The notes: a model not told the origin generated them from the sequence alone. DNA of 45,959 nt from a virus (IMGVR_UViG_3300025121_000006), one strand, 5' to 3'; positions 3,484 to 26,155 are shown, numbered from the stretch's first letter. Made by a program: numbers and translations.

Positions 3484-5898
3484 ATGAAAAAGATAAAAAT
3501 TAACTGGTTGCTTGTTGCCGCTTGTCTGCTGCTGGTTTGTGCCAGTGCTTTAGGCGCGGCGACAAGCTTTAACATTGAGAAAAAGCCGACCGCCGACTGG
3601 TTTCGAAGCGGAGACGCAAAGGATACCGGCTGGGGCTGGGCAAAGGCGATAGATAGACTTGTTTCCGGCGGTTCCGTGACGGGTACGGGCAGTATATTCT
3701 ATGTCGATTCGGGCGTTACCAACGCGGGCGACGGGTCAAGCTGGTCAAACGCGGTCGCTACACTCGATGAGGCGATTGATTTGTGCACTGATGATGCCGG
3801 AGACGTAATCTATGTCGCGGAGGGACATGCCGAAAATATTTCAGGAGCCGGAACTGTAACTTGCGACAAAAGCGGCGTAACGATTATCGGCTACGGAAGT
3901 GGTGATTTGCGGCCAACGTTCACATGGACTGCTGCCGCTGGCACCTGGATAGTTTCCGATAATGCGGTGATGGTCTATAATTGCCGGTTCACCGCCGGAA
4001 TAAGTGCGGTAGTTACGGGCTTTTCGGTTTCCGCCACTGGCGATGCGTTTACCTTGACCGGATGCGAATTTGTGAATCCGGGGACATCGACCTATGAGTT
4101 TATCAATATGATTACTCTTGCGTCCGGCTCGGACTATGTAACCATTGAAGGCAATAAGATGGTTAGTACCGTATCTACTACCGGCTGCGTCAATGCTATT
4201 CTGGCATCGGCGGGCGTCGTTAATCGGCTTACGATTGTCAACAACGATATACAGGGTAACTTCATTACAACTGGCGCGATTTATTCAAACCAGATAAACA
4301 CTAACTGTTTTATTGGATATAATGCTATTCTGCAAACAGCAACCGGAGTTCCAGCTATTAACTTTACCGCAGCCGCAACTGGTTTTTGTGTTAAAAATGT
4401 ACTGTATTCTGATACATTTGGGACGGCGGGTGTTACTATCCTTGACCCGGGTTCAATGGTATGCGCGGAAAACTACGCCATAAACACTACCGACAAAAGC
4501 GCAATCCTTGTTCCGCCGTTGCCCGCTATCAGTACACAGAGCGTAACGGCAGGTTCGGAGGCGGATATTCTCGCCAAACTGTATTACACCGCGGACGGTA
4601 CAGGCGCATATCCGGCCACAATAGCCACAGATTCAGCTTTGGCTAAAATTATGGTCAAAAGTATTACTCCGGATATTACCGCTTACGACAACGCCACTGA
4701 TTCCTTAGAGGCGCTATCGGATCAATTATTGAAGATTGACGGAGTAACCCTTGCAACCGCTCCTACTGCCGCATCATTGGCTTCATTTATTGCCTCTGGC
4801 GGTGTAGCTCTTGGTACACAACTGGCAACCAGCAAATCTCTCGTTGACGCGCTTGGTTCAAACGGTACTACCGTCGCTGATACCGCGACCGGACTGGCCG
4901 GTATTGTTGGCGTTCCTACTGACGCTGATAATGTGGTGGATTCATCGACAATTGTTTCAAATCCAGACGGTTCAGTTCTCGAACGGCAGGAATATCAGCA
5001 GAAATGTCAGGAGATAATTCTGGCTGTCTCTGGTAGAAGCGTAGCAGGTTCAGCCATGCCTCTCGCCGTTTGGTATGTTGACGGCAATATAGGTTCTTCC
5101 GGAAACGGTAAGAGCCCGGCAGCGGCGTTTAAGACTATCGCCGAGGCGATTACCGCGTGCAGTAATACCGTAGATGACTGGGTATTGATCTATGATTTTA
5201 GCGGCGGCGGAGCGACATTAACGATAGACAAGTCGTTTGTCCATCTTATAGGCAACGCGGTAAAAGGTATGCCGTATCCGAGAATTAAACCGGCTTCCGC
5301 CGTTGCCGGTATTACATTTACCGATTCCGGCGACAGGGTTGAGATAGCTAATTTGGTTATCGGCGGCGGAGACCAGACTGTAGCCGCCATTGATTTTGTT
5401 GACTGTACTACCGGAGCTTACGGTAACTATATCCACGATTGTGTAATCGGACGCGATGCGGATGCCCCGGCTAACGACGGTATTTCAATACCGGCGGGCG
5501 CCGACGCGCCGTATTTGGTTGTGGAAAATTGCACATTTTACGGTACTGCGATGAGCGGTTGCGATCAGTCGGGCATTGATATCGCCGGAAACTGTACGGG
5601 CGGGTCAATACTGAATAACTACTTTGCCGATATTGGCTCATCTACTAATCCGGCAATTAACCTGTCCGGTACGGTTGGCAATATGCGAATTGAAGGTAAT
5701 CGCATTGCCGGGACTGATGATACTGCTGCGGGATGGGGGATAACCTTATCCGCTAATTGCACAAACATTTTCGTTGACGATACCCATGCCGCATCTTCTG
5801 ATGCCGCTGGCGACGCATCAGCTTTTCTTGACAGTGCTGCTGATGAAGCAAACGCTTGGGGTATTAACTACACCGATATCACGGCGGATTTACCATAA
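3484..5898 (+). CDS. right-handed beta-helix tail fibre/tailspike-like protein with N-terminal signal-like peptide
   Basis: 804 aa with repeated 'IEGNKM', 'NNDIQGN' and 'IEGNRI' beta-helix rungs. It is G/T/A/S-rich, and the N-terminus is MKKIKINWLLVAACLLLVCASALG. Confidence 0.6.
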   Translation: MKKIKINWLLVAACLLLVCASALGAATSFNIEKKPTADWFRSGDAKDTGWGWAKAIDRLVSGGSVTGTGSIFYVDSGVTNAGDGSSWSNAVATLDEAIDLCTDDAGDVIYVAEGHAENISGAGTVTCDKSGVTIIGYGSGDLRPTFTWTAAAGTWIVSDNAVMVYNCRFTAGISAVVTGFSVSATGDAFTLTGCEFVNPGTSTYEFINMITLASGSDYVTIEGNKMVSTVSTTGCVNAILASAGVVNRLTIVNNDIQGNFITTGAIYSNQINTNCFIGYNAILQTATGVPAINFTAAATGFCVKNVLYSDTFGTAGVTILDPGSMVCAENYAINTTDKSAILVPPLPAISTQSVTAGSEADILAKLYYTADGTGAYPATIATDSALAKIMVKSITPDITAYDNATDSLEALSDQLLKIDGVTLATAPTAASLASFIASGGVALGTQLATSKSLVDALGSNGTTVADTATGLAGIVGVPTDADNVVDSSTIVSNPDGSVLERQEYQQKCQEIILAVSGRSVAGSAMPLAVWYVDGNIGSSGNGKSPAAAFKTIAEAITACSNTVDDWVLIYDFSGGGATLTIDKSFVHLIGNAVKGMPYPRIKPASAVAGITFTDSGDRVEIANLVIGGGDQTVAAIDFVDCTTGAYGNYIHDCVIGRDADAPANDGISIPAGADAPYLVVENCTFYGTAMSGCDQSGIDIAGNCTGGSILNNYFADIGSSTNPAINLSGTVGNMRIEGNRIAGTDDTAAGWGITLSANCTNIFVDDTHAASSDAAGDASAFLDSAADEANAWGINYTDITADLP

Positions 5899-5904
5899 AT
5901 TAAC

Positions 5905-5928
5905 GGGGCGGGAAACCGCCCCTTTTTT
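5905..5928 (+). terminator. rho-independent terminator
   Basis: GGGGCGG-GAAA-CCGCCCC followed by TTTTTT. Confidence 0.85.
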
Positions 5929-5936
5929 AGTATGTA

Positions 5937-6004
5937 AACCGCGGATTTCGCGGATTACACGGATTGAAAAAACAATCAGCGAAATCTGCGTAATCAGCGG
6001 TTAA
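5937..6004 (+). repeat. junction element: B units, then C units (reverse)
   Basis: AACCGCGGATTTCGCGGATTACACGGATTG ... AATCAGCGAAATCTGCGTAATCAGCGGTTAA. Confidence 0.9.
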
Positions 6005-6018
6005 AAAGGTTTCAGTAA

Positions 6019-6657
6019 ATGGCGATCGATATACAAACCGTAAATCTTGCCCTGTTTATGATAGGGGCGAAAAAGCTTGCCAGTCTTAGTGACGATACCA
6101 AGGCGGCAAGGGAAGCTAATACCGTCGGCGACCAGTGCATCAAAGAGGTCTTTGACCTGCCCATCGACTGGCGGTTCGCCGTAGCCCGCGCCGAGCTTGC
6201 CAGGCTTGCGGTAACTCCGGCGTTCGGTAAATACGATTACTACTACGGCAAGCCGGAAAACTGCCGCCGGATCATAGCGACCGTCGATGAGGACGAGGAT
6301 GATATCGAATATGATTTCGACGAGGAAGTCTATATCGATGGGGCGATTCAGACGGATTGTATAGTGTGCAATGAAGAGGAGGTTTTCGTCAAGTATATCG
6401 TACTTCGCGATAATCCCGCCGTATGGCCGGCGTATTTTAAGAAGCTGGTCGCTATAAGAATCGCGCAGTATCTATCGGGCCCGATGAATCCGGAGGGCAA
6501 GGCCTTTTATAACAAACTGGTATTTTTGTGGGACCAGGCCTACGACGAGGCCAAGAGCGGAAACGCGGCCAGAGGAGCGAGGGTAAACAGCAATAATGAA
6601 CGAATAGACGACGGCAATACGGATATTGTCAATGCCGCCGACCGCGATATGGAATAA
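6019..6657 (+). CDS. tail tubular protein A / adaptor (T7 gp11-like)
   Basis: 212 aa. 'VNLALFMIGAKKLASLSDD...DWRF' and 'VKYIVLRDNPAVWPAYF' are laid out like T7 gp11 'VNDILASIGEPPVSTLEGD...GWTF' and 'VNIIRLRDYDEMPECF'. Confidence 0.65.
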   Translation: MAIDIQTVNLALFMIGAKKLASLSDDTKAAREANTVGDQCIKEVFDLPIDWRFAVARAELARLAVTPAFGKYDYYYGKPENCRRIIATVDEDEDDIEYDFDEEVYIDGAIQTDCIVCNEEEVFVKYIVLRDNPAVWPAYFKKLVAIRIAQYLSGPMNPEGKAFYNKLVFLWDQAYDEAKSGNAARGARVNSNNERIDDGNTDIVNAADRDME

Positions 6658-6724
6658 ACAGGAAGAACACGAAGAAAAGAAATAAACCGCGGATTACGCG
6701 GATTACGCGGATTACACGGATTAA
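6657..6724 (+). repeat. junction element: degenerate A + B units x4
   Basis: AACAGGAAGAACACGAAGAAAAG ... AACCGCGGATTACGCGGATTACGCGGATTACACGGATTAA. Confidence 0.9.
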
Positions 6725-6750: not shown

Positions 6751-7443
6751 ATGAAAAAGAAAACAGACGAGTTAAACGCTGATTACGCAGATTACAAAAA
6801 TAAATTTGTGAAAATATGTGGAAACCTGCGGTTTAAATTCTTGTTTCTTGTTTTTTGGCTACTGTTTCCTGCGGCGTTTGCCGTCGGGGCGGACGGCTAT
6901 CAGCTTGAGACGGTTCAGAAGGGGGCATGGCTGATATCGGAGGCTGATTCGAACGACACGGCTCTTGATGTCAATACGGCAAGCTGGTCGGTGTGCCAGG
7001 ATTGGCGGCCGGATATACCGGCGTGGGCGAACGGACTAAAAGTGATGTTCTACGCTCAATATGTGGTAGTTGATGAGGTTAATGACCTTAACGAGCCTAA
7101 TGACAGCACTTTCAGTTATCAGTTTTATGTGGCCGATTACGGCGGAAACGCGCAGATTGTCGCAAGCGGCGACGCTACCGTCGGGGCCATGCAGCTTTCG
7201 CACGACCCTGTAACGCTTACCGAATTGAATGACGGCGATGCTGCGTTTCGCTATTGCTGGGTCGATACGCTGGGGGCGATTACAACCGACTGGAAGGGGG
7301 GCGTGACAGCTCAAAATGACGCACTGACCAATGATTGCGCGGCCTTTATATTCGACCGGCAATCGGCGAAAAAGGCATGGTGTCGAATTTACAGCAGGTC
7401 AAACGCCAACCTGAAGATATATTGCATAGCTTACGGCTATTAA
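6751..7443 (+). CDS. hypothetical virion-module protein with signal-like N-terminus
   Basis: 230 aa. A C-type element is translated in frame (ELNADYADY), followed by FKFLFLVFWLLFPAAFA. A GTG at 6808 is an alternative start. Confidence 0.5.
   Translation: MKKKTDELNADYADYKNKFVKICGNLRFKFLFLVFWLLFPAAFAVGADGYQLETVQKGAWLISEADSNDTALDVNTASWSVCQDWRPDIPAWANGLKVMFYAQYVVVDEVNDLNEPNDSTFSYQFYVADYGGNAQIVASGDATVGAMQLSHDPVTLTELNDGDAAFRYCWVDTLGAITTDWKGGVTAQNDALTNDCAAFIFDRQSAKKAWCRIYSRSNANLKIYCIAYGY
6762..6795 (+). repeat. junction element inside the 5' end of a CDS: C units, forward
   Basis: AACAGACGAGTTAAACGCTGATTACGCAGATTAC, read in frame as ELNADYADY. Confidence 0.85.
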
Positions 7444-7456: not shown

Positions 7457-8272
7457 ATGCGGTATTTTTTAGTATTGCTTTTGTGTTTTACCTGCCTTGC
7501 GATAGACGGCGGAAGATATCAAACCGATACGTCGCATTATCTTACCTTTGACGGTTCGACCGGATATGTAACCGTGCCGGATAATGCCGCGTTGGATTTT
7601 GGTACGGGCAATTTTAGTATAGCGTTCTGGGCGAAGTGGACTTCGGGGCCTATTTTACGCAGATATACGCAGTATAGTATTTATAAATCAAGTATTTATG
7701 CTAATAAACTTGCGTTAAATATCAACGATGGCATCAATTCCGCAACGGTTAATTGCACCGTTACACCTAGTGTGTGGTGCCATGTGGTTTTTACTGCCGA
7801 CAGGTCTGGTTTCGCCAATGCGTATCTAAATGGAACAATCCAATTGGTCGAAATGTCTCCGATAGATAATGTTACCGGAAGTTTGAGCAGCCCGAGCGAG
7901 CCGTTGTTTGTCGGTTACGATGATTCCAGTGTTTTCCTGAACGGCTCACTTGACGACATCCGCATATACAAAAAAGCATTATCGGGGGCGGAGATACTGG
8001 CTATTTACAATCAGGGCGTCGGTGCGATTATGGCCGGAACGGAGACTGGGTTAAGCTGGGGGACAAATGCCGATGATGGGTCGGGCGATACGGTTACGGA
8101 TATTACAGAAACGGTCAATGGCACTATAACCGGCGGCGTTACATGGTCAGAGGGCGGCGTACCTCTAAAAAAAAAATGCGTGGGCGACAGCGATATGAAT
8201 GGTGATGGAATAGTAGATTTTCTGGATTTTGCGATATTCGCAGCCGACTGGCAGAAAGAAACAAATGATTAA
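7457..8272 (+). CDS. LamG/concanavalin-like lectin domain protein with C-terminal dockerin-like motif
   Basis: 'LNGSLDDIRIYKKALSGAEILAIY' is a LamG hallmark. The C-terminus 'DSDMNGDGIVDFLDFAIFAADW' is dockerin/EF-hand-like. The N-terminus is hydrophobic. Confidence 0.6.
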   Translation: MRYFLVLLLCFTCLAIDGGRYQTDTSHYLTFDGSTGYVTVPDNAALDFGTGNFSIAFWAKWTSGPILRRYTQYSIYKSSIYANKLALNINDGINSATVNCTVTPSVWCHVVFTADRSGFANAYLNGTIQLVEMSPIDNVTGSLSSPSEPLFVGYDDSSVFLNGSLDDIRIYKKALSGAEILAIYNQGVGAIMAGTETGLSWGTNADDGSGDTVTDITETVNGTITGGVTWSEGGVPLKKKCVGDSDMNGDGIVDFLDFAIFAADWQKETND

Positions 8273-9392
8273 CCACGAAGGGCACGAAGTGACACGAAGG
8301 GGATTGCTTCGCTGCGCTCGCAATGACAATCAGCGGAATCTGCGTAATCAGCGGTTAAAAATAATTCTCTGTGTTCTCTGTGTTCTCTGTGTCATCTGCG
8401 GCTCTTGTCTTGGCGAAGTGACAAGCAGTACGGTCCAGAATTTCACGACAAATATTGACGGCTTCAATTACGAACTGGATTTTATAAAGATGTCCAGTCT
8501 TTCGGCTACCGCGCCTGTTGTCTACGACGGGGCGGGAGTATTTTCGCTCGATTACGATATCAACGATTTCTGGCTTAACGGCACGACTTTAGAAATAAAC
8601 GACGTCAATATCCACCACGGCAGTTTGTACGGGCTGGCCGCCGACGACCACACACAGTATCTATTAGCAGACGGGACAAGGGGATTATCGGGCAACTGGA
8701 ACGCGGGTGTGTTTGGTATAACAGCCAATTCCTTTACTATAGGGGCCGATACGCTTGCAACGAGCGAATGGGCTTATCTCGATGGGCAGGACCAAGCGGT
8801 AAAAAGCACAAGCATCCCGACTTTCGACGGCCTGACGTCTACCGCACCTTTAGTCGATAATTATGATACTGTTAACGGAAGCGACTGGCTGACTTGTAAA
8901 GACAATGGGACGACAAGTTTTAGGATACTGCATTATGGAACAACCCACGTTAAGTTATTGGCAACCGACAATTTATATTTTGAATGTGACACCGTCGTGT
9001 TTAATCCTGCCAATGGCATATTTTCTGTGCAGGCCGGAACTAATGGAATTTTTGAGAGCTATGGAAGGCCCTGTATTGTAAGAAGCAGAGCTGGAGCGTA
9101 TGCCCTTATCCTAAAAACAAACGATATTACCGCCATCACAATAGACGGCACTTCTCAAAATGTCGCCGTAAGCAACTATCTTAGGGTCGGTTCTGCCGTT
9201 GCCCCTACCGTACCTCTCGACGTTACCGGTGCAATCCTCGGTTCGACTACGATAGAGGCAGGAACAGGCTTTAAGTGCGGCGGAACTGCGGCGGTAGCTG
9301 ACGGTACTTATAATTTTGATGGTACGGCGGCAGGGACAGTATCAACGATGACTTTCAAGGGTGGTATTTGTACGGGAATAACAACAAGATGA
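8265..9392 (+). CDS. tail fibre protein
   Basis: 'HHGSLYGLAADDHTQYLLADGTRGLSGNWNAG' is a common phage tail-fibre motif. The ATG at 8265 overlaps the upstream stop. The first ~55 codons are encoded entirely by junction elements. Confidence 0.6.
   Translation: MINHEGHEVTRRGLLRCARNDNQRNLRNQRLKIILCVLCVLCVICGSCLGEVTSSTVQNFTTNIDGFNYELDFIKMSSLSATAPVVYDGAGVFSLDYDINDFWLNGTTLEINDVNIHHGSLYGLAADDHTQYLLADGTRGLSGNWNAGVFGITANSFTIGADTLATSEWAYLDGQDQAVKSTSIPTFDGLTSTAPLVDNYDTVNGSDWLTCKDNGTTSFRILHYGTTHVKLLATDNLYFECDTVVFNPANGIFSVQAGTNGIFESYGRPCIVRSRAGAYALILKTNDITAITIDGTSQNVAVSNYLRVGSAVAPTVPLDVTGAILGSTTIEAGTGFKCGGTAAVADGTYNFDGTAAGTVSTMTFKGGICTGITTR
8269..8391 (+). repeat. composite: A units x3 + palindromic unit + C (reverse) + TTCTCTGTG x3
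   Basis: TTAACCACGAAGGGCACGAAGTGACACGAAGGGG; GATTGCTTCGCTGCGCTCGCAATG; AATCAGCGGAATCTGCGTAATCAGCGGTTAA; TTCTCTGTG x3. Confidence 0.9.
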
Positions 9393-13771: not shown

Positions 13772-13887
13772 TTAACCACAAAAAACACGAAGAAAAAGAA
13801 ATTAACCGCGGATTTCGCGGATTACACGGATTAAGAAAATGAAAAAAAACAAAAAAATCAGCGGAATCTGCGTAATCAGCGGTTAAG
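13772..13887 (+). repeat. composite: A + B + C (reverse)
   Basis: TTAACCACAAAAAACACGAAG; TTAACCGCGGATTTCGCGGATTACACGGATTAAG; AATCAGCGGAATCTGCGTAATCAGCGGTTAAG. Confidence 0.9.
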
Positions 13888-15360: not shown

Positions 15361-15473
15361 CCACGAAGGACACGAAGAGACACGAAGGAAACAGCCAATT
15401 TTAACGCTGATTACGCAGATTACGCTGATGAAAAAAAGTTTAGGGTTTAGGGTTTAGAAATTAGAGATTAAAG
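15357..15473 (+). repeat. full composite: A x3 + AACAGCC + C x3 + GTTTAGG/AATTAGA heptamers
   Basis: All module types occur in one 117-nt spacer, ending 3 nt before the ATG at 15477. Confidence 0.95.
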
Positions 15474-15476
15474 AAA

Positions 15477-17138: not shown

Positions 17139-17166
17139 CCACGAAGGACACGAAGAAAGCACGAAG
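17135..17166 (+). repeat. junction element: A units x3
   Basis: TTAACCACGAAGGACACGAAGAAAGCACGAAG. Its TAA is the stop of the upstream gene. Confidence 0.9.
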
Positions 17167-17176
17167 AAATTAAAAA

Positions 17177-20100
17177 ATGGCAGATTTTGCAACAACATTC
17201 GCGGCGGTCGATAAGCAGAAAAAGGACAGGTTCGCACAGACTTTTAGAGAGGTCGAACAGGCCAAAGAAAACGAGGCATGGAATACGCTTGCCGCGGAGG
17301 GGGCTGTTTACGAGCCGTTCTTTGAGAAAATTGAGCAGGCCGAACTTGCCGAGCGGGAACTGTTTAGCAAAGAGCAACTTGATTACAGTAAGAGACTGGG
17401 CGGGAAAGTGCCCAATATGGCGTTATACGACGAGGCACTTAACTACGCCGACGATAAGACCATCAGTAAAATGGACGACAGCCAAAGGTGGGAACTGGTC
17501 AAAGAGAACAGGGCAAAAAGAGCCGAAATGGGTTATAAGTTTCTGCCGGTAGATAAGAAAAAACTTATGACGGGAGGCTATTCGGCGGACGGAAAGCCGG
17601 TTTTTAACGGGCCGACTATCAGGGCGGCCAACGCGACGTATTTAGCGGGCGCTACGGGGATGGAGGTCGAAAGTGCGGCGGTTCTCTACGATTCGCTGGT
17701 GACGGGGCTTTGGGGCGATAAAGAACCGAACGACATCAAGCCGTTGGGTAAATTGATTCGAAAATGGTATTCGGATAAAAGGCTTATAGAAAGCGGGATA
17801 TATCCCGAGATTTACAGGGCTGCGCAGAGGTACGCGGCGGGCGATAATACGGTTGACTGGGATATTGTAAGGGGCAATCTTTCGAGGGAAAAAGAGGAAC
17901 TGTTCAATTCCTATATCAGCCAGATGGGCAGGCCAAAACAACGGGGCGTTTTCGGCAAGACAGCGGAGGTCTTAAAACGAAGTATCGGCAGATCGGCGCA
18001 GAATATAACGGATTTTAGAACCTTGGTTGTGCCGGAAAAAACATTAAGCCAGCCAATTGAGCAGATGAAGGCCTTTAGCGAATTTAAGGCAAGGGAGGGC
18101 AGAGAGCCGACGGCGGAAGAATCTTTGCTGATTATGCAGGAAGCGACAAGCCGAATGAAAGAGCGGGTAATAGGCCGCAAAAAGAGTAAAGAGGCACTTG
18201 AAGCGGGCGATCCGGTTAAAGGGGAAAGCATACCCGGCAAACTGTTCTACGGCACACTTTCAATTGCGCCAGATGTACTGGCAAGCGCAGGACTGACGAT
18301 AGCGGCAAAAAGCCCCGTAGCGAGCTTTCAATACTGGTATATGCTGACGGCGACGGATATCTATACCGATATGGCCGATCTGGGATTCGAGGACGAGGCG
18401 GCCACGAATACAGCGAAAATCCTTGCCCTGCCGGTCGCGGCGGTAGAGTTCCTGCAGGCGGGCCAGTGGACGAAAGGATTGACCGGTGCGGCCAGGAAAA
18501 AAGCGGTCGCAAAGGCGCAGCAGGGTTTGACAAATTATCTGGCCGGTAAGCTCAAAGGTGGGCTGGTCAATTTCGGCAAAGAATACGGCCAAGAGATTCA
18601 GCAAAGCGGCCTGAAGGTCGCGGGCATGGCGTTTGCCTCATCGCTTACAGAGGATGCGCCGGATGTGAACTGGTGGGACGATGTGATAAGCCCGGAGATT
18701 GGCGGACTGGGCGAGGCGCTTTGGAGTTTTCCGGGGCTTACCGTTGGGTTTGGGGCAGCCGAGATTGGCAGCGAAGCGAAGATGGTACGCAGGATTATGA
18801 AAGATCATCCCGGCATCGATGCGGCCACGGCTCGCGCGGCGGTCTATAACGCCAAAAGTGGGGCGTTCGATGACGCGATAGAGGCAGGACTGGAAGCGAA
18901 ACAATTGATTCCGTTTACGGTCGAGGAACTAAATAGCCGGGTCGAAGAGACAAAGGCAAAATTAACTGACCTATCAGCGATGGAGGGCGGGCAAAATAGC
19001 GAACTTCTTGAATATACCCAGCGCAGGCTTGCGATACTGAAGGATGGCGGGGACAGGGGCGAACTTGCCGCATCGGCCAGCCGTTACGGGATTGACGAGG
19101 ATTTCGACGAGGAAACAGCCGAACAGCCATTCACCACAGAAGGCACAGAAGAAATAAAAGGCACAGAAGGGAAAATGGGGGCGGAATACAGGGATGCGGT
19201 GGTTGGGGCGGTGCGGGGGATTTTAGAGGCGAATGGGATTGCGGCACAAATCAGGGCGGTCGAAAATATAGAACTGCCCGAAGGTGCGGAAGGTCAGCAG
19301 GCGGCGGCGCAGCAGGCAAGGGGGGCGTTCTATTTCGATGGGGACGGGGCCAAGGTAATACAGCTTGCGTTTGCGTATAACGAAAATCGCAGGCCGGCGG
19401 ATATCACAACGGCGGGTCATGAATCGTATCACGCGCTGGCGGAGCTATTGACCGATGAGGAACGGGCGGCGGTCGCTGCCCAGTTTGGCGAAAATGAGGA
19501 TATGCAGGCGGAAGGGTTCGGGGTATGGTTAGGGGATAGGGTACAGGGTAGAGGGGATAAAGCAGGGGGAATAGTTTCACGGGCGTTTGAGAGGATCGCG
19601 GAGCTTTTAAAAAAGATTTATGCGGCGTTAAAAAAAGAGGGGCTTACTTATAAAAGTGTGTTTGAGGGTGTCGCCGCAGGCGAGTTAAAAGGCAGAACAT
19701 CGAACATCGAACGCTCAACATCGAACGTTGAATCAGGAAGGCAAACAGCCGGTAGTATTTTATATCACGGTACAGATAATGCAGAATCTATTTTGAAAAA
19801 CGGATTTACTTTCAAAAGTAGAAATTTCAAAGGGGAACGGGGCGAATTTGGAAACTCCATATCACTTTCGCCGGATAAAAATTTCGCCAAAATATACGGC
19901 AAAGATGTCATAGAAATAAAACTTAAGCCCAATATCAAATTGTTTGAAAATGAGGGCTATTCCGTTGATCATTTCAGTAGAACGAAATTTCATGATAGAG
20001 TGGAAGAGTTAGAGTCTAATGGGATTTCCGGTGAAAAAGCCACAGAAACGGCTATCGACGAATTAAAAGAGCAGGATTATGGCGGTATAAAAACCACTTA

Positions 20101-23100
20101 CGATTCAGGAAAAATAGAAATAACCATTTTTAACCCCAAAGATATCCAAATTCAGAAAGTCGAACAGCCGAATTTAGCCACAGAGGACGCAGAGAAGGCG
20201 GGGTTGAAATTCCAGACGGAAGATGATACAATGGGCGGCATGGCAGGCAAAAAGGCTGCCCGCGACATAGCCTCTCAAAAAACAGCCGAAGCGGGAAAGG
20301 GGCCGGTGAAACCAGCCGAATTGCAAAGACTTGAAGGGTTGTGGGATGAAGTTCAACCGCAGGTCATTCAATGGGAAAAAGAAAACCCAAAGCCAAAGCG
20401 CCCACAAGATATTGGGTTGCGGGCAAATAGCGAAATTCCACTGGATACACCAGGCCGGAAAGTTATTATTGAAGATATTCAAAATCGATTAAAACAGTCA
20501 AAAAAAGATTGGGAAGTAAAAAGAGATGAGGTGGTCAATAACTTTTTGGGAGGGGATTTAGACAAACTTCAACAATTACAAGCTGAATTTCGTTTTTCAA
20601 AAGAAGATTTTCGGAAAAGTCAATTTCCTCAAACCTATTCAAAAGAAATCAAATCTTTTAGAGATTTAGGATTAAACAGTTTAGCTGATAGTGTGGCGGA
20701 ATGGGGACGCGATGCTCTTGGTCTTTTTAAGCCCGATTGGTATGCACACGCCAAATATGTTGCCATAAAAATAATAAAAGAAAACGGCGGGATACAGACA
20801 TACAAAAGTAACAAAGGTGAATCAGGGTCAATTTACTTTAAGATGCCCAGTGGTCAAGAAATAAGGATTTCAGACCATGAACTACCAGAACACAGAGCAG
20901 GCCTTAATGAAATCCCAAATTGGGACGAAATTATATTAGATAAAATCATACCAGTGCAAGATATAATCGAAAGAACAAACGACATTCTGGGCATCGAATC
21001 CTCTTTTAACCACCCCGCCCCCGATGCAGGGGGGCAAGCCCCCGCGGCGAATGAGCGGGGCGAAGTTAAATTCCAGATCGATACCCAGCCGGTCAGCAAG
21101 CTGGAAGCTTCTTTCCGTAAGGATGCGGAGGAATATGTGGCCAATGTCTATATCGAAGGGGCGGACAGGGTGAACGCCTTTATCGAAGAGACAAGAGGCA
21201 GGGCAGGCCAGATTTCAAACGAGATGGATAAAAACGACGCGATGGCCGAGGTTGACGCAGCCAAGGCGGCGGCGGATGAGGCGTTTGCGGCGGCGGGGCT
21301 GGTGGGGGCTTTGCAGGGTATGAAGGGGGCAAAAAAGCCGGTTCTTGTCAATGACGCCAAGGGGGTCTATAAAGGCCAGCAGCAGCTTGCGATAGAGGCA
21401 GGCATCAGAGCCAAGGCGGCGGTCGATAAGGCCTTGTATCAGCAGCAGGCAAGGCCGAAGCGGGCAAAATACCTCGATGGATTTGCCAACAGGTTTTTCG
21501 GCCATTTGAATGACGCCAAGAGACTTGCCGGCAGGGGCGCGGCAAAGAGCGGAAAGCAGGCGAAAAAGACCTTTGAATATCTGGCCGTGCCGATAGCCAA
21601 CAGGCTCGAGGCGATAAGCCCGACCGTATTTCAGCAGGTTTTATATACCGAGTATAAAATCAAGACAAGGACGGCGGCGATGGCCAGGGAGGCGGTTCCG
21701 TTGCTTGAGAAGCTAAACCGGTTTCAAAAGGATAATACCGCCAAATTCGACGATTTCGCCATTGCATGGCGGGATGGCGACTTTACCGAGGCCGACAGGA
21801 TTGCAGAGCGGTACGGGTTCGCCGATGAATTTACGGCGGTTCGGGCGGTACTCAACGAGATATTCGCAATGGCTAACCGGGTGGGGATGGAGATAAGATA
21901 CGCTCAAGGGTACGGGCCAAGGCACATAACCGATATAGAAGGGTTTATGGAAGCCATCGGGGGCACGGAGGCACATTCGCAGATAGCCGAGGCTATACGC
22001 AACGCCGAAAAGAAAAAAGGACGCCAGCTTGAAGCTGACGAGAGGCTGCGGTTGATTAATACACTGATTCGCGGCTATACGTCAAGCGGGATCGCGTTAT
22101 CGAGGGCGGGACACGCTAAAGAGAGGGGTATCGAGAACACAAGCGAACTGGGCGAATTCTACGCAAGTCCGCAGGTAGCCCTGATGCACTATATAACAGA
22201 GATGAACGAAAAGGTTAGCTGGCGGGAGTTTTTCGGCAAGGAGACAAAGGATCTTGTAAATCTGCGTGGTGAAAAATCCAGGCTCCTGACCAGATTAAAC
22301 GCGTTATCGGGCAAGACGGCGGGCAAGGTCTTTTTGATGGGTAAGGGCTTTAGCGAGCTAAATGAAATAGACTACGCAGAGCATATCAAGAGTGAGTGGA
22401 AAAAACTCGACGAGGTCAGCGCAAAGATAACAGTTGCCGACCAGAAAAGCCTATCGGAATCGGTGGCAAGCTATGTCGACGAAAAGTATATCAGGCCAAG
22501 CGAGGCGGCGGGCAGTCCCGGTAAACGGGGCGAGGATTTGGCCAGTTTATTGCAGGCTCTTATCGAGCCGAAATCGGTGAGCGACCGCAATCTTAAATTC
22601 CTGCGAGACCTGGGCTATATTACCACACTTGCAAATCCGTTTTCGGCGATGACGCAGTTGAAAGATATCGGCGTCTCGGCGTATCGTGATATCTGGGGTT
22701 TTTTGCCACAGACAATTAAGGCCGCCGTCAATAAGGGTGAGCTAAACTTAGAGGATATCGGGGCGGCTCTGTTCGGCGAGGAGCTTACGGCCGAATCCGT
22801 GGGCAGGGCGGTCGCCGCGTCAATGAAATATTCGGGATTCGCTTATATAGATAGATTAGGCAAAACGACCTATATAAACACCGTAATAAACAAATACCGC
22901 AGGGAATCGGCTGGTTTGAGCGATGCCGATATCTCGCAGATGGCGGCTGGCACGAAGAAAAAGAGCGAGACATTTGAGCGGGTCGAACGGTTCTTCGGCG
23001 ATAAGACAAGCGATGTGGTCAAAGAAATCAGGGACGGCGGGATAACGGATAATATAAAATTCCTTGCGTTCGCCGAACTTGCGGACGTGCAGCCGATAGC

Positions 23101-23575
23101 GATGAGCAGTATGCCGGCCGGCTACGCCAGGGCGGGCAACCTGCGGCTGATGTATATGATGAAAAGCTTTACGATCCGCCAGATAAACTGGATTTACCGC
23201 GAATCGATAAAAGAGATGGGCAGTAAAAAGACGTTCGCACGAGGGGCGAAAAGGCTTATCCAGCTCGCGATTACGCTGGAGGCGTTCAATATCGGCATCG
23301 AAGTGCTGCGTCAGCTTGCCAAGGGCAAAGAACCCGACGAGATAGACATCGCAGATATCGCCATTGATGAGGCGATGGGTTATATGATGGCAAGCAGGTA
23401 CAGTGTCCAGAATATAAGGAGGGAAGGATTCGCAGGGTATATGAAACAGGTCGCCCCGCCGACAAAGCCATTCGACTGGATAGTGCAGGGCAAACCAGAT
23501 AAAGCGGTAAGGAATATCCCGATACTGGGCGAGCCGTATTACTGGTGGTTCGGGGCGGGCAGTGAAAAGAAGTAA
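17177..23575 (+). CDS. giant mosaic virion/ejection protein (polyvalent-like) with HExxH and PARP-like ART motifs
   Basis: An uninterrupted 2132-aa ORF in the position of T7 gp16. It contains HESYH (19418-19432), 'LYHGT...GEFGNSISLS...KIEITIF' (19741-20160), and vestigial in-frame junction elements. Confidence 0.6.
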   Translation: MADFATTFAAVDKQKKDRFAQTFREVEQAKENEAWNTLAAEGAVYEPFFEKIEQAELAERELFSKEQLDYSKRLGGKVPNMALYDEALNYADDKTISKMDDSQRWELVKENRAKRAEMGYKFLPVDKKKLMTGGYSADGKPVFNGPTIRAANATYLAGATGMEVESAAVLYDSLVTGLWGDKEPNDIKPLGKLIRKWYSDKRLIESGIYPEIYRAAQRYAAGDNTVDWDIVRGNLSREKEELFNSYISQMGRPKQRGVFGKTAEVLKRSIGRSAQNITDFRTLVVPEKTLSQPIEQMKAFSEFKAREGREPTAEESLLIMQEATSRMKERVIGRKKSKEALEAGDPVKGESIPGKLFYGTLSIAPDVLASAGLTIAAKSPVASFQYWYMLTATDIYTDMADLGFEDEAATNTAKILALPVAAVEFLQAGQWTKGLTGAARKKAVAKAQQGLTNYLAGKLKGGLVNFGKEYGQEIQQSGLKVAGMAFASSLTEDAPDVNWWDDVISPEIGGLGEALWSFPGLTVGFGAAEIGSEAKMVRRIMKDHPGIDAATARAAVYNAKSGAFDDAIEAGLEAKQLIPFTVEELNSRVEETKAKLTDLSAMEGGQNSELLEYTQRRLAILKDGGDRGELAASASRYGIDEDFDEETAEQPFTTEGTEEIKGTEGKMGAEYRDAVVGAVRGILEANGIAAQIRAVENIELPEGAEGQQAAAQQARGAFYFDGDGAKVIQLAFAYNENRRPADITTAGHESYHALAELLTDEERAAVAAQFGENEDMQAEGFGVWLGDRVQGRGDKAGGIVSRAFERIAELLKKIYAALKKEGLTYKSVFEGVAAGELKGRTSNIERSTSNVESGRQTAGSILYHGTDNAESILKNGFTFKSRNFKGERGEFGNSISLSPDKNFAKIYGKDVIEIKLKPNIKLFENEGYSVDHFSRTKFHDRVEELESNGISGEKATETAIDELKEQDYGGIKTTYDSGKIEITIFNPKDIQIQKVEQPNLATEDAEKAGLKFQTEDDTMGGMAGKKAARDIASQKTAEAGKGPVKPAELQRLEGLWDEVQPQVIQWEKENPKPKRPQDIGLRANSEIPLDTPGRKVIIEDIQNRLKQSKKDWEVKRDEVVNNFLGGDLDKLQQLQAEFRFSKEDFRKSQFPQTYSKEIKSFRDLGLNSLADSVAEWGRDALGLFKPDWYAHAKYVAIKIIKENGGIQTYKSNKGESGSIYFKMPSGQEIRISDHELPEHRAGLNEIPNWDEIILDKIIPVQDIIERTNDILGIESSFNHPAPDAGGQAPAANERGEVKFQIDTQPVSKLEASFRKDAEEYVANVYIEGADRVNAFIEETRGRAGQISNEMDKNDAMAEVDAAKAAADEAFAAAGLVGALQGMKGAKKPVLVNDAKGVYKGQQQLAIEAGIRAKAAVDKALYQQQARPKRAKYLDGFANRFFGHLNDAKRLAGRGAAKSGKQAKKTFEYLAVPIANRLEAISPTVFQQVLYTEYKIKTRTAAMAREAVPLLEKLNRFQKDNTAKFDDFAIAWRDGDFTEADRIAERYGFADEFTAVRAVLNEIFAMANRVGMEIRYAQGYGPRHITDIEGFMEAIGGTEAHSQIAEAIRNAEKKKGRQLEADERLRLINTLIRGYTSSGIALSRAGHAKERGIENTSELGEFYASPQVALMHYITEMNEKVSWREFFGKETKDLVNLRGEKSRLLTRLNALSGKTAGKVFLMGKGFSELNEIDYAEHIKSEWKKLDEVSAKITVADQKSLSESVASYVDEKYIRPSEAAGSPGKRGEDLASLLQALIEPKSVSDRNLKFLRDLGYITTLANPFSAMTQLKDIGVSAYRDIWGFLPQTIKAAVNKGELNLEDIGAALFGEELTAESVGRAVAASMKYSGFAYIDRLGKTTYINTVINKYRRESAGLSDADISQMAAGTKKKSETFERVERFFGDKTSDVVKEIRDGGITDNIKFLAFAELADVQPIAMSSMPAGYARAGNLRLMYMMKSFTIRQINWIYRESIKEMGSKKTFARGAKRLIQLAITLEAFNIGIEVLRQLAKGKEPDEIDIADIAIDEAMGYMMASRYSVQNIRREGFAGYMKQVAPPTKPFDWIVQGKPDKAVRNIPILGEPYYWWFGAGSEKK
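19113..19174 (+). repeat. vestigial junction element in frame inside the giant ORF
   Basis: AAACAGCCGAACAGCCATTCACCACAGAAGGCACAGAAGAAATAAAAGGCACAGAAGGGAAA followed by an in-frame ATG. TTAAC has changed to TTCAC, so there is no stop. Confidence 0.8.
19684..19751 (+). repeat. tandem ACATCGAAC units + AACAGCC box in frame inside the giant ORF
   Basis: GTTAAAAGGCAGAACATCGAACATCGAACGCTCAACATCGAACGTTGAATCAGGAAGGCAAACAGCCGG. Confidence 0.8.
20162..20203 (+). repeat. vestigial junction element in frame inside the giant ORF
   Basis: GAACAGCCGAATTTAGCCACAGAGGACGCAGAGAAGGCGGGG. Confidence 0.75.
21036..21060 (+). promoter_or_regulatory. conserved leader box, copy 3, embedded in frame in the giant ORF
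   Basis: AAGCCCCCGCGGCGAATGAGCGGGG, with no ATG downstream. Confidence 0.5.
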
Positions 23576-23578: not shown

Positions 23579-23645
23579 TGGAAAATTTGAAATTTGAAAA
23601 GGAGTTCAATATGCTTAACCACGAAAAGCACGAAGGGCACAAAAG
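23579..23645 (+). repeat. heptamers + SD + ATG + A units (translated)
   Basis: GGAAAATTTGAAATTTGAAAAGGAG...ATGCTTAACCACGAAAAGCACGAAGGGCACAAAAG. Confidence 0.9.
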
Positions 23646-25632
23646 AGGCTATAGACTATGGACTAAAGGCTATGGGTTGCTTGTTGTTTGTTTCTTGTTT
23701 CTTGCCCCTTGTCTGGCGACGGTGACGGAGACTTCGACCAAAGTGCAGTATTCATGCAACGGGTCGAGTACGGCATTTGCGTTCAGTTTCCCCATTGTAG
23801 AAACTTCGGATATCGTCGTGATTCTGCGGACGGTAGCGGACGGGACGGAGCTTGTTTTGACCGAGGGGGTCAATTACAATGTGTCGGCGACAAATAACGA
23901 TTATTCGCAGGGCGGGACCGTAACGGCGACTACGGCTTATTCGAGCCTATACCAGCTTACCATCATGAGAGACACGCCCGATACGCAGGAGGCCGATCTC
24001 GATGATTCAGGCACGCTTAGACTGGAGACGCTCGAAGATGCGATGGACAGGGCGACAATGCAGATTCAGCAGCTTACCGAATCGTATAGCAGGGCTATAC
24101 ATTATCCGCGAAGCGATTCGACTTCGCTTACGGGCGAGCTTGACGACTCGATAAGCAGGAAGGGCGGGTATTTAGGTTTTAGCAGCTCTACCGGCGAGGC
24201 GCTTGTGGTGGCGGGACTTACTCCTTCGGATGTGACGGTGTCGCCGTTTGCCGAAACGGCTCTTGACGATGCGACAGGGGCGGCCATGCTGACTACGATG
24301 GGGGCAATGGCGGTATTTAATGTCAAGACCTACGGAGCAATCGGCGACGGCGATACAAACGATACGGCGGCGATAACCTCGGCGATAACCGCCGCGGCGG
24401 CGGCGGACGGCGGAATCGTGTGGTTCCCGACGGGGGTGTACCTGTGCAATGTGACGCTCTCTAACGACAATATCCGCCTATTGGGGGCGGGCAGCGAATC
24501 GCCGGTCGATTGGGACGGCGGGGATGAAAACTGCTCGATGCTGAAGGCGTACACGACCGACCCCGTTATAACGATATATCCAAGTTCCGGCGGCGGGCAG
24601 GTCAGCGGGATACAGATAAGTAATCTGACAATTGACGGCAACGATACAAGCAAGGGAATTTATTATCAGGCCGACAACCCGTATATACTCTATTTTTGCA
24701 GATTTGAAAATCTTAATATAAACAATACCACTTACGGCATCGATTTATATACCTACGGCGGGGTAAGCGCGGTAAAGAATACTATGAACCAATGCGTGTT
24801 CGACCATATTACCGTGTGGGATTTTACCGTTAACGGAATTATGACATCTTCCGTCGGCAGTTATAACAACTGGAGCAGAATTTTAGTTTATGACAGCGGC
24901 AATACATCGACCAGTTACGGTATTTATCATAGAGGGTTGAATGATAACTGGAACGGCGTTACAACAAACACCAAAGTAAGAATTGACGGCGCTAATACAG
25001 AAATGGCAAATCTGACCGTAGAGGGAATATATGGTACAACCGGAGTGGCTACAACTGCTACAACGCCGGCAATAACCGTCGCAGGTTATGCTCAAACTTT
25101 TATCAATGTCGATCTGAAGAGTACCGACGACGGAGGCGGCACGGCGAACTATGGAATAGCGGCGTATAACGGGCCAAACTACTTTATAAATGTCAGATAC
25201 TGGGGCAATGTCACAGAATTAACTTACCCGTTTACAATCAACCAGAATTCAAAGGGATATGTCTATTTTTACGCATTCCCGTCAACGGGTACGAAATTAG
25301 ACTCTACCGCCCATTATAACGCTACCCTTGCAACTTATTCCAACGCCTTTAAGAACTGGACTATCGCGGGCGATTTGACTTACGTCTGCGACGGGCTTGG
25401 TCAAATCCCTATGCCGCAATCGGCACTGCCAGCCCATTCGGCGAATCCGACAAACGCGGTCGATGGATTGAGAGGCCGCATAGTATTTAATGATACAGGC
25501 GACGACCACTTTTACGGGACGGTGCAAAAGAACGGGTTAAGAGTCTGGAAGCGATTAGACACAGACCCGGCGGATTTTATAAGCTATGAGAATGCAAGCG
25601 TATTTTACGAAGAAGAAATTGTCACGTACTGA
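23611..25632 (+). CDS. tailspike with pectate-lyase-like beta-helix domain
   Basis: 'FNVKTYGAIGDGDTNDTAAITSAI...GGIVWFPTGVYL' is the pectate_lyase_3-type tailspike signature. A strong SD (AAGGAG) lies 7 nt before the ATG at 23611. Confidence 0.7.
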   Translation: MLNHEKHEGHKRGYRLWTKGYGLLVVCFLFLAPCLATVTETSTKVQYSCNGSSTAFAFSFPIVETSDIVVILRTVADGTELVLTEGVNYNVSATNNDYSQGGTVTATTAYSSLYQLTIMRDTPDTQEADLDDSGTLRLETLEDAMDRATMQIQQLTESYSRAIHYPRSDSTSLTGELDDSISRKGGYLGFSSSTGEALVVAGLTPSDVTVSPFAETALDDATGAAMLTTMGAMAVFNVKTYGAIGDGDTNDTAAITSAITAAAAADGGIVWFPTGVYLCNVTLSNDNIRLLGAGSESPVDWDGGDENCSMLKAYTTDPVITIYPSSGGGQVSGIQISNLTIDGNDTSKGIYYQADNPYILYFCRFENLNINNTTYGIDLYTYGGVSAVKNTMNQCVFDHITVWDFTVNGIMTSSVGSYNNWSRILVYDSGNTSTSYGIYHRGLNDNWNGVTTNTKVRIDGANTEMANLTVEGIYGTTGVATTATTPAITVAGYAQTFINVDLKSTDDGGGTANYGIAAYNGPNYFINVRYWGNVTELTYPFTINQNSKGYVYFYAFPSTGTKLDSTAHYNATLATYSNAFKNWTIAGDLTYVCDGLGQIPMPQSALPAHSANPTNAVDGLRGRIVFNDTGDDHFYGTVQKNGLRVWKRLDTDPADFISYENASVFYEEEIVTY

Positions 25633-25633
25633 C

Positions 25634-25726
25634 AAAAAAAATTAAAAATAAAATATTAAAAATCAAAAATGAAAGGAGTCAAAAACAATGTTTAACCACG
25701 AAGGACACGAAGGGACACGAAAAGGG
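25634..25726 (+). repeat. A-rich heptamers + SD + ATG + A units x3 (translated)
   Basis: AAAAATTAAAAATAAAATATTAAAAATCAAAAATGAAAGGAG...ATGTTTAACCACGAAGGACACGAAGGGACACGAAAAGGG. Confidence 0.9.
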
Positions 25727-26155
25727 ATTTGCTGCTTGTTAATTGTTGCCTGCTGCTTAATGGGGTTTGCAAGCGCGGCGGATTTGAAGGAAAAGAGTAT
25801 CTCGCTGCTCTCGGCGACGACGGTTGCCTTTAACGCCAACGCCGATACTACGCTTTATACCGTGCCGACGGGTAAGCGATGCGTTCTGCATTCGGCGGTA
25901 GTTGTGGCGGGCGCGGACGCGGGGGCGACGACGACGCTTTCTATCGGGCAAAATACGGCGGAAACCGACTTTGTTGCCGCCCATACGCTCTCGAACCTCG
26001 ACGCGGCTTACGATGCGGTTATATTGCAGCCGGTACCGGCTACCACACCGTTGAAGATAAAAAGCTACGCAGCCGGCACGGTGATACAGGCGCAGGTCGC
26101 CAGCCAGTCGGGCGGAGCGACAAATACGGTGTACCTGTTCGGATTTTTGTATTAA
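25688..26155 (+). CDS. small secreted-type virion-module protein
   Basis: 155 aa, SD AAAGGAG. The N-terminus MFNHEGHEGTRKGICCLLIVACCLMGFASA is encoded by an A-type element followed by a hydrophobic core. Confidence 0.5.
   Translation: MFNHEGHEGTRKGICCLLIVACCLMGFASAADLKEKSISLLSATTVAFNANADTTLYTVPTGKRCVLHSAVVVAGADAGATTTLSIGQNTAETDFVAAHTLSNLDAAYDAVILQPVPATTPLKIKSYAAGTVIQAQVASQSGGATNTVYLFGFLY

Follow-up and report, generated by a model that had tools for sequence, protein, structure and literature searches.

Predicted Sec-type signal peptides on the distal tail proteins of an uncultured podovirus lineage

Seven genes of the virus IMGVR_UViG_3300025121_000006 encode proteins that begin with a hydrophobic N-terminal leader. 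The genes lie between positions 3484 and 26155 of the stretch of DNA analyzed here (45,959 nt, hereafter the window) and include a T7 gp12-type tail nozzle (gene 9389; genes and their proteins are named by their first nucleotide) and a tail fiber or spike (gene 23611). We conclude that these leaders are almost certainly real and under selection, and that the seven N-termini are probably genuine, translated Sec-type signal peptides of the kind processed by signal peptidase I. Comparison with related contigs further suggests, with comparable confidence, that the leaders are a trait of whole genomes in a large uncultured lineage of temperate podoviruses whose tail is of T7 gp11/gp12/gp17 type. 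The trait would consist in the proteins distal to the gp11-like adaptor being made as leader-bearing precursors and the capsid, decoration, portal, adaptor and core proteins being made without leaders, a division that the sequences make the more probable arrangement.

An earlier note on this DNA, made from the sequence alone, had quoted the seven N-termini, and each of them is present in the sequence exactly as given (Table 1). The public assemblies list four of these genes, and their gene caller placed the starts identically, with products of 230, 271, 375 and 872 aa. The strong Shine–Dalgarno (SD) sequences cited in the note, AAGGAG before gene 23611 and AAAGGAG before gene 25688, are both in place, the latter in the strong context GAAAGGAG, and genes 8265 and 9389 start in an overlap with the stop codon of the upstream gene (ATGATTAA and ATGA, respectively). 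As the note also stated, the nozzle gene has no in-frame start between the last TTG of its repeats (codon 32) and residue Y41. Alternative starts exist for gene 8265 (GTG 8418, right after the leader) and for gene 23611 (ATG 23578 upstream and GTG 23722 downstream). Two generalizations in the note have to be narrowed. A positively charged n-region, the N-terminal segment of a signal peptide, is found in six leaders (net charge +1 to +6) and is lacking in that of 25688 (net charge 0), and the description of all seven as virion or tail proteins is carried by homology for 9389, 23611 and, weakly, 7457, and by gene position only for the other four.

The seven leaders share the further properties of signal peptides. 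Their −3/−1 sites read ALG/A, AFA/V, CLA/I, CLG/E, AAA/Y, CLA/T and ASA/A in gene order, the best 10-aa Kyte–Doolittle mean ranges from 2.97 to 3.63, and the uncharged stretch made up of the hydrophobic core (h-region) and the cleavage-site segment (c-region) spans 13–19 aa, somewhat longer than in homologs; predicted mature N-terminal peptides include YRQTTNTLNGGELSPLLEGR, TVTETSTK and ADLKEK. A heuristic scan that scores hydrophobicity in a window, the charge of the n-region and small −3/−1 residues flags all seven leader genes. From the 42 remaining genes it also picks out a holin-like protein, two lipoproteins (29543 and 38365) and three small membrane proteins, with further matches in the terminase (residues 59–69) and in protein 14776 (residues 42–54; weak, internal and with zero n-region charge). 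Within the structural module, seven of seven distal genes are flagged versus none of 11 head and core genes (Fisher 3e-5). Using a position weight matrix (PWM) trained solely on the nozzle leaders of other phages (positions −13 to −1), we observed that the six non-nozzle leaders of the window rank first to sixth among 49 proteins, with scores of 14.9–20.6 versus 2.1 at the 99.9th percentile of internal positions. The best PWM site coincides with the quoted position in five of the six; for 25688 the matrix prefers residue 26 and the ortholog boundary indicates residue 30.

The nozzle family provides the largest comparison. The window nozzle matches phrog_376 at 2e-217 (residues 41–871, with profile position 4 on residue 41) and the "Tail Nozzle" of PDB 8ck1 at 2e-118 (residues 37–867), and because the family profiles of nozzle and fiber (phrog_376 and phrog_1640) align only after the leaders, the leaders are N-terminal additions to known families. 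A nozzle search of viral contigs gave 47 loci (loci of retrieved contigs carry L-numbers). In most nozzle homologs of these loci the initiator methionine lies ~8–10 residues before a conserved NxFxxGE(L/W)SP motif, and the closest homologs (L001, L002/3, L015, L029) have hydrophobic leaders that are unrelated in sequence. In a collection of 5.8 billion proteins we found 5,493 nozzle matches at E ≤ 1e-30 and examined the best 120 (41–58% identity, many on contigs of 45–48 kb); the nearest, after the nozzle of an identical second assembly, is 58% identical. A leader is present in 97 of the 107 homologs of this set that have the motif near the N-terminus. Aligned on the motif FNAGELSP, these leaders show a fixed geometry: position −8, corresponding to cleavage position −1, is small in 91% (G 50, A 32, S 6), position −10, corresponding to cleavage position −3, is mainly A 30, C 27, S 8 and V 8, the intervening position −9 is bulky (F, Y, L), positions −11 and −12 hold P, S or T, and positions −14 to −16 are 85–89% hydrophobic, mostly Leu. 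The n-region has a net charge of at least +1 in 96% of the 97, the leaders have a median length of 19 aa, and the h- and c-regions together have a median of 14 aa, with 91% at ≤17 aa and 2% at ≥20 aa. Pairwise identity is 21% among the leaders versus 61% for the first 47 mature residues. The ten leaderless homologs in the same set start with M and 7–9 aa before the motif, as in MATIILNS-FNAGE (the hyphen marks the start of the motif), which is the predicted cut position, and the window nozzle, AAPAAA/YRQTTNT-LNGGELSP, keeps the family register with its cut 7 residues before the motif.

As read from these alignments, the nozzle leader geometry marks these as cleavable signal peptides of type I, as opposed to membrane anchors. 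The leaders combine a positive n-region, an h-region of ~7–15 aa that is shorter than a membrane span, and, after a helix breaker, a c-region whose −3 and −1 residues are small and uncharged, and we consider, with good confidence, that they are cleaved. Uncleaved tethers, in which anchors resembling the signal-arrest-release (SAR) type would hold the tail proteins at the inner membrane until holin-triggered depolarization, or would serve the virion as membrane-inserting peptides during infection, are improbable. SAR endolysins do demonstrate Sec-dependent tethering with lysis-timed release (PMC3765740), tethering would co-localize all outer tail parts, and the somewhat longer uncharged stretches of the window leaders lean in that direction. 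The h- and c-regions of the nozzle family are nevertheless too short for a stable membrane span, the cores are rich in Leu, Ile and Phe and not in Gly and Ala as in SAR domains, the conserved helix breaker with a small −3/−1 site at fixed distance is a cleavage signature, the predicted mature ends coincide with the N-termini of leaderless homologs, and a virion that exposes dozens of hydrophobic helices would be likely to aggregate.

Three other classes of signal were considered for the seven leaders and rejected. For lipoprotein signals (signal peptidase II), the candidate motifs VAAC (3484), LVSC (9389) and IVAC (25688) lie inside Cys-rich h-regions with more hydrophobic residues after them, and a lipobox [LVI][ASTVI][GAS]C at the end of the h-region is not conserved in orthologs. 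For twin-arginine translocation (Tat), the nozzle and fiber leaders are of MKK/MKR type without RR and no S/T-R-R-x-F-L-K precedes an h-region; the TRRGLL of 8265 comes from a repeat unit (unit A, below) ~18 residues upstream of the h-region. For SAR domains, the cores are short, rich in Leu, Ile, Phe and Val and followed by a −3/−1 site, and do not form an uncleaved span rich in Gly, Ala and Ser.

The fiber repeats the pattern of the nozzle. Protein 23611 has a gp17-like N-domain (phrog_1640 at 7e-26, profile positions 2–125 on residues 37–163), matches 15 further phrogs of tail, fiber, spike and unknown function, and contains a pectate-lyase-like region (PF12708 at 3e-14). We searched its mature gp17-like N-domain against 1.84 billion cluster representatives, and in the best 150 clusters the number of residues before the domain is bimodal: 68 have 0–2 (M-x-VSTTTNRVSY) and 79 have at least 12 (mode 17–20). 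Hydrophobic leaders of n-h-c architecture that end in AxA or CxG at the domain boundary account for 75 of these 79, as in MKKLLLILLLLAIPAYA directly before TITTTTTRVSY. Fiber orthologs with leaders occur in L001, L003, L170 and L171, and distant homologs (L004, L011, L017, L026, L036/37) start 1–3 residues before the domain.

Homologs of 25688 in leaderless-type phages (38–56% identity) start M- or GTG-ADLKEKSISLL, which is the predicted mature end (ASA/ADLKEKSISLL), so the 25688 leader looks like a clean 90-nt addition between SD-ATG and codon 2; a homolog of 80% identity starts MSVRLATK. The predicted mature ends thus equal the N-termini of leaderless homologs in three families, those of the nozzle, the fiber and 25688. 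Orthologs of 3484 (L001, L170, L171, L172) have unrelated leaders followed by conserved GASGYNLGAV...PSDWF, and the relatives of 6751 in L180 and L181 (54–56% identity) have ordinary repeat-free leaders that end directly at a conserved DELETVQ. Protein 7457 has a LamG domain (Pfam Laminin_G_3 at 8e-19), and unrelated n-h-c leaders are present in 10 of 17 homologs of its mature part, often with a dockerin-like motif next. This motif, D-x-N-G-D-G-x-V-D-F-x-D-F-A-x-F-A-x-x-W, stands at the C-terminus of the window protein and directly after the leader in many homologs (P0145, P0148, P0150–P0152, P0156–P0158).

Coincident mature ends require removal of the leader and not export. Assembly or chaperoning leaders that a protease of host or phage cuts off in the cytoplasm, with only a coincidental likeness to signal peptides, would account for them and would avoid the topological problem of periplasmic tails joining cytoplasmic heads; in staphylococcal phage 80alpha, N-terminal extensions of the capsid and scaffold proteins are cleaved by the host protease Prp. 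We consider such propeptides very improbable here: hundreds of unrelated sequences from at least six protein families share the complete n-h-c architecture, which is the Sec and signal peptidase I signature, and a Pfam search of the phage genes detected no signal peptidase, protease or Sec factor.

The leaders are overlaid by repeats. Almost all late intergenic regions of the window hold an ordered module of mini tandem repeats between the stop codon and the next SD and ATG, in the order A (CACGAAGGN, 2–3 copies, often running from the TAA stop in TTAACC), B (CGCGGATTA, 3 copies), C (AATCAGCGN, 3 copies) and D (A-rich 7-mers). Matches to the A unit number 22 versus 0.3 expected, the B and C arrays form imperfect inverted repeats of 30–31 nt (80–81% complementary), and the modules match no Rfam family. 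The claim that the leaders are partly encoded by these elements applies to six of the seven, which contain A, reverse-A, B-like, C or D units or T-rich 7- to 11-mers, and not to 7457: the leader of 7457 has no tandem repeat, and that of 3484 has a weak 11-mer array and, like 7457, none of the named A–D units. The NHEGHEG n-regions of 8265, 23611 and 25688 are, as the note had it, forward A units read in frame, and other units are translated as SLRGTSCSSW (reverse A, 9389), ADYADY (B-like, 6751) and NQRNLRNQR (C, 8265). The T-rich 7- to 11-mers lie in five h-regions, and the proposal that h-regions derive from reverse or degenerate A repeats finds no support, the match being no better than in composition-matched shuffles (0.27 and 0.68).

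Relatives allow the signal to be separated from the repeats. The A, B and C arrays are absent from L001, L002/3 and L170–172, whose leaders show just trivial two-copy matches. Leaders are ~21 aa long in repeat-free relatives versus a mean of 34 aa in the window, where the repeats sit mainly in n-regions and leaders are 10–30 aa longer than in the relatives. Because repeat-free relatives have equivalent, shorter leaders, the repeats are best read as passengers in leader DNA that is constrained only for charge and hydrophobicity, and not as the origin of the signal. Leaderless homologs that keep the elements as spacers, the pattern the earlier note had named in advance as counter-evidence, are the reverse of what we found, namely leaders kept and elements lacking.

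The same comparison bears on the suggestion that the elements create fortuitous open frames, in which case the modules would be untranslated spacers, the true starts would lie downstream (GTG 8418, GTG 23722 or a TTG in a repeat) and there would be no leader. Six of the seven leaders do share the mini-repeats that fill the intergenic regions, a GTG lies 1–2 residues past the predicted site in 8265 and 23611, the family profiles align only past the leaders, and 25688 has leaderless homologs. Yet repeat-free relatives carry equivalent leaders on the same genes, leaders of fixed −3/−1 geometry occur in ~90% of close nozzle homologs and half of the fiber clusters, the downstream GTGs have no SD and the upstream ATGs have strong SDs or start/stop overlaps, the nozzle offers no usable downstream start, and two of the leaders are free of the named units. 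Fortuitous frames are hardly credible as an account of the set, and the repeat-free relatives and the fixed cleavage geometry in homologs lead us to reject them for six of the seven genes.

A separate case is that of the related phage L015, which has its own 9-mer unit, CATGAAGRN, in 18 copies versus ~4 expected (1294–1368, 2030–2045, 10389–10404); read forward it gives the K-rich n-region MKDMKSMK of one leader, and read in reverse it gives F(F)M.FM within three h-regions. Frame-preserving 9-mers can therefore supply leader codons. A look for microdiversity in the leader repeats gave none: the second assembly is 100% identical over 8.6 kb, and the next nozzle in similarity is already down to 58% identity. 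Exact copies of the A unit AACCACGAAGNNCACGAAG are also present in over 120 genome contigs that span many phyla of bacteria (L048–L167); as none of these has the B or C arrays as well, we rejected the unit as a host marker. It typically forms an inverted pair of triple arrays there, (CACGAAGNN)x3, a spacer of 10–300 nt and (NNCTTCGTG)x3, as in L071 (2406–2483), L075 (6453–6520), L088 (2774–2829), L107 (4187–4369) and L112 (3392–3727); L081 (Bacteroidales) has seven copies of the unit with a period of ~85 nt.

The leaders follow virion position. In the syntenic relatives L001, L002/3 and L170–172 they are found on the ortholog of 3484 and the next gene, on the nozzle and the genes that separate it from gp11, and on the fiber that follows a core protein of ~2000 aa. 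The major capsid, decoration, gp11-like and core proteins of the same relatives are leaderless, as is the portal of the window phage. The gp11-like adaptor, leaderless in the window, L001, L002, L170–172 and L187, marks the boundary between leaderless inner and leader-bearing outer parts of the virion. Among loci of at least 10 kb, the signal-peptide-like fraction of the other open reading frames is 0.27 in nine genomes with a leader-bearing nozzle versus 0.04 in 20 genomes with a leaderless one (Mann–Whitney p = 1e-5). The 25688 family is leaderless in L183–186, and L187 is wholly leaderless at 55% nozzle identity. Intermediate genomes exist in which the nozzle is leaderless and some accessory or fiber-like genes are signal-peptide-like: L020/L039 (6531–8550, 18387–20173), L022 (7112–9000) and L188 (5724–7739). 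Because of the genome-level fractions, the leaderless-type genomes and these intermediates, we conclude that parts distal to the adaptor tend to carry the signal together and that the state switches between related genomes.

The intermediates, with leaders on accessory and fiber proteins and none on the nozzle, fit an arrangement of dual pools, in which an exported, non-virion form would mask or destroy receptors, exclude superinfection or degrade the envelope or extracellular polymeric substances before release, and virions would be built from a fraction that is unexported or uses another start. Modules that look envelope-active or adhesive, the pectate-lyase-like region of 23611 and the LamG and dockerin-like regions of 7457, point the same way. 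This arrangement seems unlikely to us: the nozzle has no plausible free-standing extracellular role and still bears a leader in ~90% of close homologs, no internal start is conserved at the cleavage site (A, V, I, L or F stands at position −7, with no consistent start codon), and the genome-wide coordination points to a common pathway for parts that assemble together.

Tethers, dual pools and propeptides each fit the data less well than export, and of the possibilities raised in the earlier note it is membrane targeting or export before assembly that the evidence favors; the comparisons document the signal, and export is the step we infer from it. Under export, the host Sec machinery would translocate the distal tail proteins and signal peptidase I would cleave the leaders, removal at −3/−1 yielding mature N-termini equal to those of leaderless homologs. 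Nozzle, fibers and accessory proteins would then fold in the periplasm and might also pre-assemble there; periplasmic assembly of the tail is a tentative proposal. More speculatively, the distal tail would meet adaptor-capped, DNA-filled heads when the inner membrane is breached at lysis. Joining of heads with tails or spikes in lysates is well known for other phages. The full scheme, in which the lineage exports its whole distal tail through host Sec, builds it outside the cytoplasm and joins it to heads at lysis, would be a route not described for Caudoviricetes, and we put it forward as doubtful. As a corollary of this scheme, short frame-preserving tandem repeats could be raw material for building or extending leaders on newly acquired tail genes, with 25688 and L015 as examples. 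In the window, the mini-tandem repeats have probably colonized the loosely constrained leader DNA, lengthening n-regions and supplying T-rich codons to h-regions.

Several observations weigh against export. Export and cleavage are both read from a pattern in sequence, and passage of the hexameric nozzle across the membrane is hard to square with its need to dock, by way of a leaderless adaptor, on heads that are in the cytoplasm. We know of no precedent in tailed phages, and the literature searched, which left most subscription journals outside its scope, nowhere describes Sec signals on tail proteins of Caudoviricetes. Nor is the trait strictly all-or-none, as L020, L039, L022 and L188 illustrate. 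Cysteine content of mature nozzles is the same in leader-type and leaderless forms (0.62% versus 0.62%, p = 0.42), so an oxidative-folding rationale for the leaders was dropped as unsupported. Finally, 8265 is the weakest of the seven cases: no ortholog of it was found, its matches being just partial C-terminal domain matches in unrelated proteins, and a GTG directly after its leader could serve as start. Its leader is supported by the leader-bearing genes directly upstream of the nozzle in relatives and by its PWM score, and a fortuitous frame for 8265 alone is a rather unlikely outcome.

The window comes from a groundwater metagenome, and the phage genome is complete as a circle of 45,832 bp: window positions 1–127 and 45833–45959 are identical, 127 nt being the assembler k-mer size, and the window is circularly permuted relative to the closed genome. 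An identical contig was recovered in a second assembly (100% over 8.6 kb). Nearly all genes are on the + strand. The predicted gene set, which besides the virion genes of Table 1 includes two integrase-family genes, two DNA methyltransferases, a small terminase subunit and a Tad2-like gene, identifies the phage as a temperate podovirus with a T7-type tail, and it is probably a temperate phage that carries an anti-defense gene. The match of 14776 to PF24072 (T7_gp14) is weak. The three core and ejection proteins (2,879 aa in total) contain no cysteine, and 16 are present in 780 aa of the leader-bearing protein 3484. Strong intrinsic terminators, each a G+C-rich hairpin with a T-run, bracket gene 3484, one directly after the decoration gene and the other before the gp11-like gene. 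A period-25 tandem repeat inside a gene with an HTH_36 domain may represent iterons or an origin of replication. Rfam and tRNA scans found no RNA genes in the window.

Table 1. Predicted leaders of the window, the repeats within them, and other annotated features (positions counted from the first letter of the window; a slash marks the predicted cleavage site)
Feature	Position	Strand	Sequence or match	Remarks
Leader of 804-aa beta-helix-like protein	3484–3555 (24 aa), gene 3484–5898	+	MKKIKINWLLVAACLLLVCASALG/AATSF	PWM 14.9, best site residue 24
Leader of 230-aa protein	6751–6882 (44 aa), gene 6751–7443	+	ends RFKFLFLVFWLLFPAAFA/VGADG	PWM 19.1 at residue 44
Leader of LamG-domain protein, dockerin-like C-terminus	7457–7501 (15 aa), gene 7457–8272	+	MRYFLVLLLCFTCLA/IDGG	PWM 20.6 at residue 15
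Leader of 375-aa fiber-like protein	8265–8414 (50 aa), gene 8265–9392	+	ends CGSCLG/EVTSS	PWM 17.3 at residue 50
Leader of T7 gp12-type nozzle	9389–9508 (40 aa), gene 9389–12007	+	ends FLAAPAAA/YRQTTNT	
Leader of tail fiber/spike	23611–23718 (36 aa), gene 23611–25632	+	ends FLAPCLA/TVTETS	PWM 18.3 at residue 36
Leader of 155-aa protein	25688–25777 (30 aa), gene 25688–26155	+	ends ICCLLIVACCLMGFASA/ADLKEKS	
Repeats in 6751 leader	6776–6795; 6838–6857		B-like; TTCTTGT x2.9	n-region; h-region
Repeats in 8265 leader	8274–8301; 8328–8354; 8365–8392		A; C; TTCTCTGTG x3	n-region; n-region; h-region
Repeats in 9389 leader	9393–9419; 9425–9450; 9458–9491		D; reverse A; TTCTTGT x4.9	
Repeats in 23611 leader	23620–23645; 23676–23704		A-like; GTTGCTT x4.1	
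Repeat in 25688 leader	25697–25721		A	
Intergenic repeat modules	141–158, 1118–1133, 2890–2917, 5937–6002, 6659–6723, 13777–13886, 15362–15457, 17140–17169, 26170–26185, 29009–29034, 41715–41730, others			
Major capsid protein, HK97-type	1848–2876	+	PF20911 at 1.7e-53 (Pfam)	no hydrophobic N-terminus, leaderless control
Decoration protein, Bbp16-like	2958–3410			
gp11-like adaptor (tail tubular A)	6019–6657	+	phrog_394 at 7e-28	leaderless
Portal	12081–13763	+	PF12236 at 1e-75	no hydrophobic N-terminus, leaderless control
Internal core/ejection proteins	14776–23575	+	gp14-like 14776–15360, 15477–17138, 17177–23575 (2132 aa)	no N-terminal leader
Dockerin-like motif of 7457	8190–8260			C-terminus
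Intrinsic terminators	3415–3430; 5905–5922			
Integrase-family gene	27348–28163	−		nearly sole minus-strand gene
Integrase-family gene	36006–36902	+		
Period-25 tandem repeat	34172–34298		ACGACAAAAGTGTCGTTACCCCCTC, 5.2 copies	inside HTH_36-domain gene 33866–34702
Tad2-like (anti-Thoeris) gene	45092–45616	+		

Two labels of metagenome-assembled genomes are the sole hints of a host, Planctomycetota (P0100) and Sedimentisphaerales, also Planctomycetota (P0158, a 7457 homolog with the dockerin-like motif); a leaderless LamG homolog carries a Halanaerobiales label. Labels of this kind can result from mis-binning. The trait may be characteristic of one host group. Should the signals function as their bacterial counterparts do, phages of this lineage would form their tails at least partly outside the cytoplasm, and views of head–tail joining, lysis timing and the maturation of receptor-binding proteins would change, tailed phages being thought to assemble entirely in the cytoplasm. 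On the practical side, gene callers and annotators should not trim these N-termini, and tail fibers or depolymerases of these phages should be produced recombinantly either leaderless or in the periplasm.

Among known systems, T7 gp12-type nozzles and gp17-type fiber adaptors (8ck1; HTVC010P of Pelagibacter, Cobetia Carin1, E. coli phiV10 and Bordetella BPP-1) are homologous to the mature parts of the window proteins. Alignments to cultured-phage nozzles begin at about query residue 26–48, inside or after the 40-aa leader, and show no homologous leader, as judged from alignments and not annotated starts; likewise, none of the nozzle and fiber alignments to phages of Pelagibacter, Cobetia, Klebsiella, E. 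coli, Bordetella and Burkholderia extends into a leader. There is no close cultured relative among the GenBank phage matches for nozzle and fiber, all of which are distant and belong to phages of Proteobacteria.

To our knowledge, the phage proteins described as carrying Sec signals are lysis proteins and proteins of filamentous or membrane-containing viruses, and do not include nozzles and fibers. SAR endolysins and spanin lipoproteins are phage proteins that use host Sec, and lipoproteins 29543 and 38365 are candidates for such a role in the window; they differ in being lysis proteins, and SAR domains are Gly/Ala-rich, uncleaved and ~18–20 aa long, whereas the leaders described here are short and strongly hydrophobic with cleavable sites. 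SAR endolysins are an example of a Sec-dependent phage lysis protein (PMC3765740). The pVIII and pIII coat proteins of Inoviridae are virion proteins made as precursors with cleavable leaders and assembled at the membrane, and signal peptides on virion proteins have been used as a hallmark of filamentous and budding viruses (bioRxiv 10.64898/2026.09.15.751708). Inoviridae extrude single-stranded DNA through the envelope and have no cytoplasmic capsid, whereas the window phage has an HK97-type capsid, portal, terminase and T7-type tail, so heads and exported tail parts would lie on opposite sides of the membrane. Hepatitis B virus precore is a capsid-protein variant with a cleaved N-terminal signal peptide, though in a eukaryotic endoplasmic reticulum system and as a minor isoform. 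According to PMC2114996, translocation of precore can abort after cleavage, the product being freed to the cytoplasm, and by analogy aborted translocation is a conceivable way for a phage leader to be cleaved without full export.

There is also the likeness to bacterial type I signal peptides themselves, which share with the leaders of the relatives a positive n-region, a Leu-rich h-region of 7–15 aa followed by a helix breaker, a bulky −2 residue between small ones at −3 and −1, and an overall length of ~17–21 aa. The difference lies in their bearers, structural tail proteins of tailed double-stranded DNA phages including the nozzle, and, in the window, in an unusual length of up to 50 aa that comes from repeat units in the n-regions. 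Together, these comparisons point to a familiar signal in an unexpected place, on the distal tail proteins of what appear to be hundreds of uncultured podovirus genomes, with leaderless homologs as a natural control.

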